Assembly (NCBI RefSeq): GCF_003334355.1 | Contig: NZ_QOWP01000039.1 | DNA: 30,913 bases | Direction: 5' to 3' (one strand) | Source: Escherichia coli | Lineage (GTDB): Bacteria; Pseudomonadota; Gammaproteobacteria; Enterobacterales; Enterobacteriaceae | Shown: positions 5,039 to 11,215 of the stretch, piece after piece | How the letters are laid out: every line of letters begins with the position of its first letter | Numbering within the stretch: position 1 is the stretch's first letter | The notes under the pieces: model-generated | Told to the model about the DNA's origin: nothing | What the model saw: the letters and a program-made list of their open reading frames with translations, nothing else | Database searches by the model: none | Translations under genes and position numbers: made by a program

Positions 5039-5137
5039 GCCGGATGCGGCGTGAACGCCTTATCCGGCCTACAAAAACATGCAAATTCAATAGATTGCAG
5101 AGATTATGTAGGCCTGATAAGCGTAGCGCATCAGGCA
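5039..5137. repeat. REP/BIME element pair (two inverted REP units) downstream of pitA
   Basis: gccggatgcggcgtgaacgccttatccggcctaca at 5039-5073 and the inverted unit tgtaggcctgataagcgtagcgcatcaggca at 5107-5137 match the enterobacterial REP consensus as I recall it. Confidence 0.6.
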
Positions 5138-6692: not shown

Positions 6693-8162
6693 ATGAATAC
6701 AACAACACCCATGGGGATGCTGCAGCAACCTCGCCCATTTTTCATGATCTTTTTTGTCGAGTTATGGGAGCGATTCGGCTACTACGGCGTGCAGGGCGTA
6801 CTGGCGGTTTTCTTCGTTAAACAGCTTGGATTCTCGCAAGAGCAGGCTTTTGTCACTTTTGGTGCTTTTGCTGCGCTGGTCTATGGCCTCATTTCCATTG
6901 GCGGCTATGTCGGCGACCACCTGCTGGGGACCAAACGCACCATTGTTCTTGGTGCACTTGTGCTGGCGATTGGCTACTTCATGACCGGCATGTCGCTACT
7001 TAAGCCTGACCTGATTTTCATCGCCCTGGGGACTATCGCTGTAGGTAACGGCCTGTTTAAAGCTAACCCAGCCAGCTTGCTTTCGAAGTGCTATCCGCCG
7101 AAAGATCCGCGGCTTGATGGCGCATTCACCCTGTTCTATATGTCGATCAACATCGGCTCGTTGATAGCGTTATCGCTGGCCCCTGTGATCGCTGATAGAT
7201 TCGGTTATTCAGTCACCTACAACCTGTGCGGGGCGGGGTTAATTATCGCATTACTGGTTTACATCGCCTGTCGTGGAATGGTGAAAGACATTGGTTCTGA
7301 ACCCGACTTCCGGCCAATGAGCTTCAGCAAACTGTTGTACGTGTTACTTGGCAGCGTGGTGATGATCTTCGTATGCGCATGGCTGATGCACAACGTAGAA
7401 GTCGCCAATCTGGTGCTGATTGTTCTCTCCATCGTCGTCACCATCATCTTCTTTCGTCAGGCATTCAAGCTGGATAAAACCGGGCGCAATAAAATGTTTG
7501 TCGCCTTTGTCCTGATGCTCGAAGCGGTGGTGTTTTACATTCTCTACGCCCAGATGCCAACATCGCTGAACTTCTTTGCCATCAACAACGTGCATCATGA
7601 AATTCTCGGTTTTTCCATCAACCCGGTCAGCTTCCAGGCGCTTAACCCGTTCTGGGTGGTACTCGCCAGCCCAATACTGGCAGGCATTTACACGCATCTG
7701 GGTAACAAAGGCAAAGACCTCTCGATGCCGATGAAATTTACTCTCGGCATGTTTATGTGCTCACTGGGCTTTTTGACGGCGGCAGCTGCGGGAATGTGGT
7801 TTGCGGATGCACAAGGGCTGACATCGCCATGGTTTATCGTGCTGGTGTACTTATTCCAGAGCTTAGGTGAACTGTTTATTAGCGCCCTTGGCCTGGCGAT
7901 GATTGCTGCCCTGGTGCCGCAGCATTTGATGGGCTTTATTCTCGGGATGTGGTTCCTGACGCAGGCTGCCGCGTTCTTGCTGGGCGGCTATGTGGCAACA
8001 TTTACCGCGGTGCCGGACAACATTACCGATCCGCTTGAGACGTTGCCCGTCTATACCAACGTGTTTGGTAAGATTGGTCTGGTCACGCTGGGCGTTGCAG
8101 TAGTGATGCTGTTGATGGTGCCGTGGCTGAAACGCATGATTGCGACGCCGGAAAGTCATTAA
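6693..8162 (+). CDS. dtpB: Dipeptide/tripeptide:H+ symporter DtpB (POT/PTR2 family, 489 aa)
   Basis: 489-aa MFS/POT-type membrane protein with the ERFGYYG signature near the N-terminus; recognised as DtpB (YhiP). Confidence 0.95.
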
Positions 8163-8178: not shown

Positions 8179-8210
8179 CAGGGTAGCGTTATCGCTACCC
8201 TGTTTTAGTT
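8179..8210. terminator. Bidirectional hairpin terminator between convergent dtpB and rsmJ
   Basis: Stem cagggtagcg / cgctaccctg with loop ttat, T-rich on the + side (ttttagtttt) and a weaker T-rich context on the - side (rc of gcagaaag). Confidence 0.5.
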
Positions 8211-8970: not shown

Positions 8971-11013
8971 TCAGCCCTTAATGCCGTAATGCTCCAGCAT
9001 CGCATCCAGCTGCGGTTCACGACCACGGAAGCGTTTGAACAGATCCATCGGCTCTTCTGAACCGCCACGGCTCAGAATGTTGTCGAGGAACGACTGCCCG
9101 GTTTCACGGTTGAAAATGCCCTCTTCCTCAAAGCGCGAGAAAGCATCTGCCGCCAGTACGTCAGCCCACAGGTAGCTGTAGTAACCTGCGGCATAACCAC
9201 CGGCGAAAATATGGCTGAAAGCGTGCGGGAAACGGCCCCAGGACGGAGATGGCACCACGGCAACCAGTTTCTTGATTTCTGCCAGAGTTTCGAGGATTTT
9301 TGCCCCCTGATCCGGGCGGAACTCGGCATGAAGGCGGAAATCAAACAGGCCGAACTCCAGCTGACGCAGAATAAACAGCGCCGCCTGGTAGTTCTTCGCC
9401 GCCAGCATTTTATCCAGCAACTCTTTCGGCAGCGGTTCGCCGGTTTCATAGTGACCAGAGATAAACGCCAGCGCCTCCGGCTCCCAGCACCAGTTTTCCA
9501 TAAACTGACTCGGCAGTTCGACCGCATCCCACGGCACACCGCTGATACCGGAAACACCAGCGGTTTCGATGCGGGTCAGCATATGGTGCAGGCCGTGACC
9601 GAACTCGTGGAAGAGGGTGATCACTTCGTCGTGAGTGAACAGCGCCGGTTTACCATTTACCGGGCGGTTGAAGTTACAAGTCAAATACGCGACCGGTTTT
9701 TGCAAAGAACCATCAGCTTTACGCATCTGGCCTACGCAGTCATCCATCCACGCCCCGCCGCGCTTGTTTTCACGGGCATACAGATCGAGGTAGAAGCTAC
9801 CGCGCAGTTCGTTATTTTCGTCATACAGTTCGAAGAAACGTACATCCGGATGCCAGACATCAACATCTTTACGCTCTTTAGCGGTGATGCCGTAAATACG
9901 CTTAACCACTTCAAACAGGCCGTTAACCGCTTTGTTTTCCGGGAAGTACGGACGCAGCTGTTCGTCACTGATGCTGTAGAGGTGCTGTTTTTGTTTTTCG
10001 CTGTAGTAAGCGATATCCCACGGCTGCAACTCATCGACGCCAAATTCGGCTTTGGCAAAGGCACGCAATTGCGCCAGCTCTTTTTCGCCTTGTGGACGCG
10101 CGCGTTTTGCCAGATCGGTTAAGAAATCCAGCACCTGCTGCGGGTTTTCTGCCATTTTAGTGGCAAGGGATTTAAAGGCGTAGTTTTCAAAGCCCAGCAG
10201 TTGCGCCAGTTCGTGACGCAGCGCGAGGATCTCTTCCATCACCTTGCTGTTATCCCATTTACCGGCGTTTGGGCCTTGATCGGAGGCGCGGGTGCTGTAA
10301 GCGCGATACATCTCTTCACGCAGAGCCTGGTTGTCGCAGTAGGTCATTACCGGCAAGTAGCTTGGGATATCCAGCGTCAGCAAATAACCTTCCAGCTCTT
10401 TCGCTTCGGCCTGGGCTTTTGCCGCAGCCAGCGCGCTTTCTGGCATCCCCGCCAGCTCCGCTTCGTCGGTAACGAGTTTGGTCCAGCCCATTGTCGCATC
10501 GAGGACGTTGTTGCTGTACTGGTTGCCCAGTTCAGAAAGACGGGTCGCAATTTCGCCGTAACGCTGCTGTTTCTCTTTCGGCAGACCTATGCCAGAGAGT
10601 TCAAAGTCGCGCAGTGCGTTATCAACCGCTTTCTTCTGCGCCGTGTTCAGCGTGGCGTAATGATCGCCATCGCGCAGGTCGCGATACGCTTTATACAGCC
10701 CTTCATGTTGCCCTACCCAGGTGCTGTATTCCGACAGCAGCGGCAGGGTTTGTTCGTAGGCTTCACGCAGTTCCGGGCTATTTTTCACCGAGTTCAGGTG
10801 GCTGACCGGGGAGAAGATACGCCCCAACACATCGTCCACTTCCGCCAGCGGCTGGCAGAGATTTTCCCAGGTGTACGGTGCCCCTTGCGCTACTACGCGC
10901 TCCACGTTTTCGCGGCAGTCGTTCAATGCCTTAGTCACGGCTGGAACGACATGTTCCGGGAGAATTTTAGAAAACGGAGGCAATTCAAAGGGAGTCAGTA
11001 ACGGATTCGTCAT
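8971..11013 (-). CDS. prlC: Oligopeptidase A (M3 family zinc metallopeptidase, 680 aa)
   Basis: Starts [17 protein letters not shown] at ATG 11013 (the six-frame ORF has 13 extra upstream codons). HEFGH zinc-binding motif present; recognised as PrlC/OpdA. Confidence 0.9.
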
Positions 11014-11075
11014 TCGCGCAGTCCTGGTTAAAGAGGTTAAGGAAGCGCTCAACAGGCGCTTTACATAATGTGTGT

Positions 11076-11104
11076 AGCATGGGGTTAAGTGTAGTGAATT
11101 TCAA
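11076..11104 (-). promoter_or_regulatory. Candidate sigma32 (heat-shock) promoter of prlC
   Basis: Read on the minus strand: TTGAAA (rc of 11099-11104), a 14-nt spacer, then CCCCATGCT (rc of 11076-11084). This matches the sigma32 consensus TTGAAA-N13-15-CCCCATnT and lies about 60 nt upstream of the prlC ATG; prlC is a known heat-shock gene. Confidence 0.5.
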
Positions 11105-11215
11105 TGAGAAACGTTACGCTTTCGCGGCGGCGGCCTCTTTTCGGTATACTGTCCTGATACGCTTTTGTGCGCCCCGAATACGGGCCGATTTTTACTTACC
11201 GGAACACCTTTACCC

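Follow-up and report, generated by a model that had tools for sequence, protein, structure and literature searches.

The minus-strand element TTGAAA-N14-CCCCATGCT, which lies in the divergent spacer between prlC and rlmJ, very probably serves the prlC-rsmJ operon of Escherichia coli K-12 as its sigma-32 (RpoH) promoter. This promoter is already documented, an ordinary case of heat-shock regulation and not an addition to the sigma-32 promoter family; in both E. coli and Salmonella, prlC-rsmJ is accepted as part of the sigma-32 regulon, to which nothing is added here. The case illustrates instead that a real heat-shock promoter can be recognised from a reading of sequence alone. A preliminary description of this DNA had proposed just such a promoter, and heat-shock control of prlC together with rsmJ is supported by the phylogenetic footprint, the anatomy of the operon and the literature.

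The window, i.e. the whole stretch of DNA analysed, comprises 30,913 nucleotides. Its region 10700-11500 is 100% identical to that of E. coli K-12 MG1655 and was found in 5423 of 5426 complete E. coli genomes. Gene coordinates are those of the RefSeq annotation of the identical MG1655 record, mapped onto the window (and, for prlC, also of the list of open reading frames). The genes and elements discussed below are as follows.

8971-11013, minus strand: prlC, oligopeptidase A, 680 aa
8211-8963, minus strand: rsmJ (yhiQ), GTG start
11216-12058, plus strand: rlmJ
12130-13482, plus strand: gor
ending at 8162, plus strand: dtpB
11104-11099, minus strand: -35 element TTGAAA, read from the sequence (conserved block ATTGAAAT at 11105-11098)
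11098-11085, minus strand: 14-nt spacer between the -35 and -10 elements, read from the sequence
11084-11076, minus strand: -10 element CCCCATGCT, read from the sequence (core CCCCAT at 11084-11079)
11069-11073, minus strand: predicted transcription start, a purine, most likely the A at 11069 (from the geometry of dnaK P1)
11014-11068, minus strand: prlC leader, about 55 nt
11061-11043, minus strand: GC hairpin AAGCGC-CTGTTGA-GCGCTT, at about +9 to +27 (from folding)
11025-11022, minus strand: Shine-Dalgarno sequence AGGA, 8 nt before the ATG, at least 97% conserved
8200-8181, minus strand: hairpin GGGTAGCG-ATAA-CGCTACCC, followed by TGCTTTCT, read from the sequence

With prlC on the minus strand and rlmJ on the plus strand, the divergent spacer extends from 11014 to 11215. 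Its annotated length of 202 bp agrees with the roughly 200 bp given in the preliminary description. The range assigned there to the promoter (11069-11215) does contain the motif; it also spans the entire rlmJ half of the spacer, and it misses the prlC leader at 11014-11068.

The minus strand of the motif region reads cATTGAAAttcactacacttaaCCCCATGCTacaca, and a longer reading of the spacer gives ...ctcATTGAAAttcactacacttaaCCCCATGCTacacacattatgtaAAGCGCctgttgaGCGCTTccttaacctctttaaccAGGActgcgcgaATG. As had been proposed, the motif is correctly placed for prlC: it is oriented toward the gene, and its end lies 65 nt 5' of the ATG. The -10 consensus of sigma-32 is CCCCATNT, from which single promoters depart, and some 13 to 15 nt are permitted between TTGAAA and CCCCAT. 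Relative to what is expected of the family, the -35 (C)TTGAA(A) is represented here by an exact TTGAAA whose leading base is A instead of the usual C, the C-tract -10 by an exact CCCCAT, and the spacing by 14 nt; orientation, position and purifying selection on both elements likewise conform. The -10 of prlC reads CCCCATGC, with a C at position 8 in place of the T of the textbook sequence, and that position is treated here as a preference, not as a defining feature. The earlier statement that the element comes close to the heat-shock consensus thus holds, with both cores exact and the combination unique in the window. An exact TTGAAA-N14-CCCCAT occurs once on the two strands of the 30.9-kb window, against 0.01 expected (mean of 100 dinucleotide-preserving shuffles). 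If up to two mismatches are allowed, seven matches are found against 3.5 expected, which is the level of chance; only the exact match is therefore meaningful.

When species-representative genomes were scanned once with residues 1-300 of PrlC, 80 loci were returned. Together with the window, these provided 79 usable distinct upstream sequences, and the PrlC relatives were all at least 89% identical. The comparison covers the Enterobacteriaceae, with about 80 species-level genomes from some two dozen named genera, among them Escherichia, Citrobacter, Salmonella, Klebsiella, Raoultella, Enterobacter, Kluyvera, Leclercia, Lelliottia, Pluralibacter, Phytobacter, Trabulsiella, Kosakonia, Franconibacter and Atlantibacter. 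TTGAAA was present in 78 of the 79 upstream sequences (the exception being TTGAAT) and CCCCAT in 76 (the exceptions being CCCCAG twice and CTCCAT once), while the 14-nt spacing was kept in all 79. Conservation of the E. coli base across the spacer was distributed as follows.

-35 hexamer: mean 99.8% (79 sequences)
-10 hexamer: mean 99.4% (79 sequences)
14-nt spacer between the two: mean 79%, minimum 42% (79 sequences)
all other intergenic positions: mean 53% (79 sequences)
rlmJ side of the prlC-rlmJ spacer: mean 46%

Each of the four C's 5' of the AT in the -10 element is at least 97.5% conserved. A C-tract at this place is a determinant of sigma-32 and not of sigma-70. The A that precedes TTGAAA is invariant among the relatives, and it belongs with a small set of prlC-specific bases conserved among genera, the others being G/T-C-T-A after CCCCAT, where T-T-A is usual. 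In two Kosakonia loci (L071 and L076), the upstream neighbour is a gene other than rlmJ and the leader is shortened to 33 nt, with the motif intact in front of prlC; the element thus goes with prlC, not with rlmJ. In E. coli itself, 5421 of 5426 complete genomes carry exactly one copy, at an identity of at least 95%, of an 86-nt stretch surrounding the promoter. With its hexamers and 14-nt spacing essentially fixed, this footprint could be used as a positive control for promoter-finding methods.

Occupancy by sigma-32 and regulon membership of the prlC promoter are taken from the literature. A ChIP-chip study of sigma-32 recorded a prlC signal of 2.4 (log2 ratio), and it cites Wade 2006, Nonaka 2006 and Zhao 2005 as also reporting prlC as a target (PMC2996942). 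Elsewhere, prlC-yhiQ was placed under RpoH (PMC2710865), PrlC was named among sigma-32-controlled proteins (PMC8076867), and prlC was up-regulated along with the sigma-32 regulon (PMC6498945). Conlin and Miller (2000, J Bacteriol 182:518) describe the opdA operon of Salmonella, in their title, as heat-shock regulated. The heat-shock promoter of prlC in E. coli and opdA in Salmonella, for which the sources are that paper and the RpoH regulon lists of Nonaka 2006, Wade 2006 and Zhao 2005, agrees with the present element in locus, organism and two-gene operon. prlC goes unmentioned in the main text of a genomic SELEX paper on RpoH promoters, and the supplements of PMC3415461, PMC9104697, PMC3923258 and PMC11548764 yielded nothing usable on a mapped prlC start.

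A counterpart is provided by dnaK P1, a reference promoter for sigma-32, for which a cryo-EM open complex has been described (PMC10216364). The two promoters have in common TTGAA in the -35, CCCCAT in the -10 and a similar geometry, dnaK P1 being CTTGAAG-N13-CCCCATTTA and prlC ATTGAAA-N14-CCCCATGCT. Compared with dnaK P1, prlC has a spacer longer by 1 nt, an A where dnaK P1 has C before TTGAA, and GCT instead of TTA after CCCCAT. The same paper gives CTTGAA as the -35 consensus of sigma-32.

A match to a promoter motif may, of course, be fortuitous. Across the genome, RpoH motif instances far outnumber bound sites, since by ChIP-exo only 52 of 1036 were occupied (PMC9104697); for that reason, the present case rests on conservation and on published ChIP, not on the motif by itself. 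A chance match without function is nevertheless extremely improbable here, as 0.01 exact matches were expected in the window, the elements are at least 99% conserved in 79 sequences while their flanks drift to about 50%, and both ChIP and regulon evidence have been published; the conservation pattern refutes it in practice. Shared operators are common in divergent intergenic regions, and the conserved blocks do lie near the middle of the spacer, so that they might instead form the operator of a transcription factor controlling prlC and rlmJ alike, with the likeness to sigma-32 elements a coincidence. This, too, is very improbable: both blocks are exact matches to the sigma-32 elements and are spaced as sigma-32 permits, the motif is kept before prlC in Kosakonia where rlmJ is not the neighbour, and the published sigma-32 ChIP signal falls at the position of the prlC promoter. 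The conservation pattern, the motif without rlmJ and the ChIP result together exclude such an operator in practice.

A dual use of the promoter deserves more weight, although it is still doubtful. Here, sigma-70 would use TTGAAA with a weak -10, CATGCT, for basal expression, and sigma-32 would add induction under stress; such sharing is an add-on to the main explanation and not a replacement for it. prlC is expressed without heat stress, which would fit, but basal sigma-32 could explain that expression equally. TTGAAA-N17-CATGCT is legible in the sequence with 8 of 12 matches, the -35 agreeing with TTGACA at five of six positions and the -10 keeping its A2 and T6. CATGCT, however, matches TATAAT at only three of six positions, its fourth position is G or T among genera, and sigma-70 has no need of the conserved CCCC tract. 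Extensive overlap between sigma factors was reported, to judge from its title, by Wade et al. 2006 (cited in PMC2996942). A sigma-70 consensus scan listed no site on the minus strand of the prlC-rlmJ spacer. As a main reading, a promoter for sigma-70 only was rejected, because the scan found no site on either strand of the spacer and the best -10 reached three of six matches.

With sigma-32 as the preferred reading, the following course of events may be proposed. RNA polymerase carrying sigma-32 would recognise ATTGAAAT at -35 and CCCCATGCT at -10, 14 nt apart. The scaffold of dnaK P1 has its +1 at 10 nt past the T of CCCCAT (PMC10216364), and when this geometry is applied to the CCCCAT of prlC, transcription is predicted to start near A11069. 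The transcript would run from a leader of some 55 nt through prlC and rsmJ to the hairpin at 8200-8181, where it would end. When heat or the misfolding of proteins raises sigma-32, the levels of oligopeptidase A and RsmJ would be expected to increase together. We infer where exactly transcription starts and ends, and how large the induction is.

The two genes are closely coupled. The GTG start of rsmJ lies exactly 7 nt 3' of the prlC TGA, so that the distance given in the preliminary description is confirmed by the sequence. The gap measures 0 to 8 nt in most genera: among 76 loci, a strict pattern placed the rsmJ start 0 to 8 nt past the prlC stop in 59 (one of them with a 4-nt overlap), and five more, missed by the pattern and read by eye, have a GTGAAC start 7 to 10 nt after that stop. 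In a further ten of the 76, the gap contains an insertion of about 125 bp, and rsmJ still follows in the eight that were checked. Near the prlC-rsmJ junction, a consensus scan of the minus strand called nothing resembling a promoter. The hairpin at 8181-8200, an 8-bp, GC-rich stem located after the rsmJ stop and between the convergent rsmJ and dtpB, is a plausible terminator and likely a bidirectional one serving both rsmJ and dtpB; a terminator scan of the window did not list it. With the two genes on one strand, a gap that leaves no room for a promoter or terminator, a conserved linkage and a hairpin after rsmJ, the features of a bicistronic operon are all present, and co-transcription is predicted.

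The insertion in the prlC-rsmJ gap is palindromic and was seen in some Citrobacter, Raoultella and Phytobacter (loci L011, L012, L019, L050, L053, L054, L059 and L061-L063); on the basis of the ERIC consensus, we take it to be an ERIC/IRU-like element. In the remaining two of the 76 loci, L017 (Citrobacter amalonaticus) and L042 (Leclercia adecarboxylata NCTC13032), the prlC frame ends early, at 617 and 644 codons, respectively, versus 680 elsewhere. This early stop may reflect a frameshift or an assembly error.

The arrangement resembles that of rlmE-ftsH, in which, according to a paper of 2000 as cited in PMC7056703, an rRNA methyltransferase and a protease or peptidase are likewise co-transcribed from a sigma-32 promoter. 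The two differ in that the methyltransferase gene comes first in rlmE-ftsH, whereas the order is reversed in prlC-rsmJ, and in that the enzymes and their targets are not the same (Um2552 of 23S rRNA for rlmE-ftsH, m2G1516 of 16S rRNA for RsmJ). In the literature searched, rsmJ was linked to no heat-related phenotype. Heat-shock control of an rRNA methyltransferase, of RsmJ as of RlmE, is a known and little-studied phenomenon.

A second feature of the prlC leader is its GC hairpin, which is present in 66 of 68 distinct leaders from Enterobacteriaceae, with 3 to 10 nt between the arms, and is absent from the short leader of the Kosakonia sacchari type. The variation in arm spacing weakly favours a hairpin over an operator of fixed spacing. 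Covariation is weak: 90.7% of cells are paired, only two pairs show double changes, the GCGC cores are invariant, and the covariation score was reached by 20 of 500 shuffles. This is too little to claim an RNA structure from covariation, and the leader has an ordinary folding energy (z = -0.64). No Rfam family matched the region 10700-11500, even at E <= 1; the hairpin thus corresponds to no described RNA. As it is clear of the Shine-Dalgarno sequence, it is also no classical RNA thermometer. That it might be an undescribed element of post-transcriptional control (through mRNA stability, pausing or attenuation, for instance) or a preferred landing site beside which REP sequences insert is a tentative and rather unlikely proposal; if true, sigma-32 would be joined by a second layer of regulation in the prlC promoter region. 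REP-like palindromic insertions of 12 to 84 nt lengthen the prlC leader in L005 (E. coli E69), L018, L024, L025 and L029, all at one place, immediately past the promoter and ahead of the GC hairpin.

On the rlmJ side of the spacer, a TATACT at 11145-11150 (plus strand) is 60 to 80% conserved among genera and is preceded, at an 18-nt spacer, by a weak -35, TTCGCG. The consensus scan did not call it; TATACT is likely the -10 element of rlmJ. A small hairpin, CCCG-AATA-CGGG followed by CCGATTTTTAC, lies at 11171-11197 (plus strand) in what is presumed to be the rlmJ leader; it is 10 to 40% conserved and is probably insignificant.

Elsewhere in the window, five matches reached the Rfam gathering score, all on the plus strand. 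These are ES036 (5075-5115), two AgrB-family copies adjoining dinQ (13894-13977 and 14125-14208), ES205 (23643-23714) and GadY (29493-29606), small RNAs that are expected for the part of the K-12 chromosome contained in the window.
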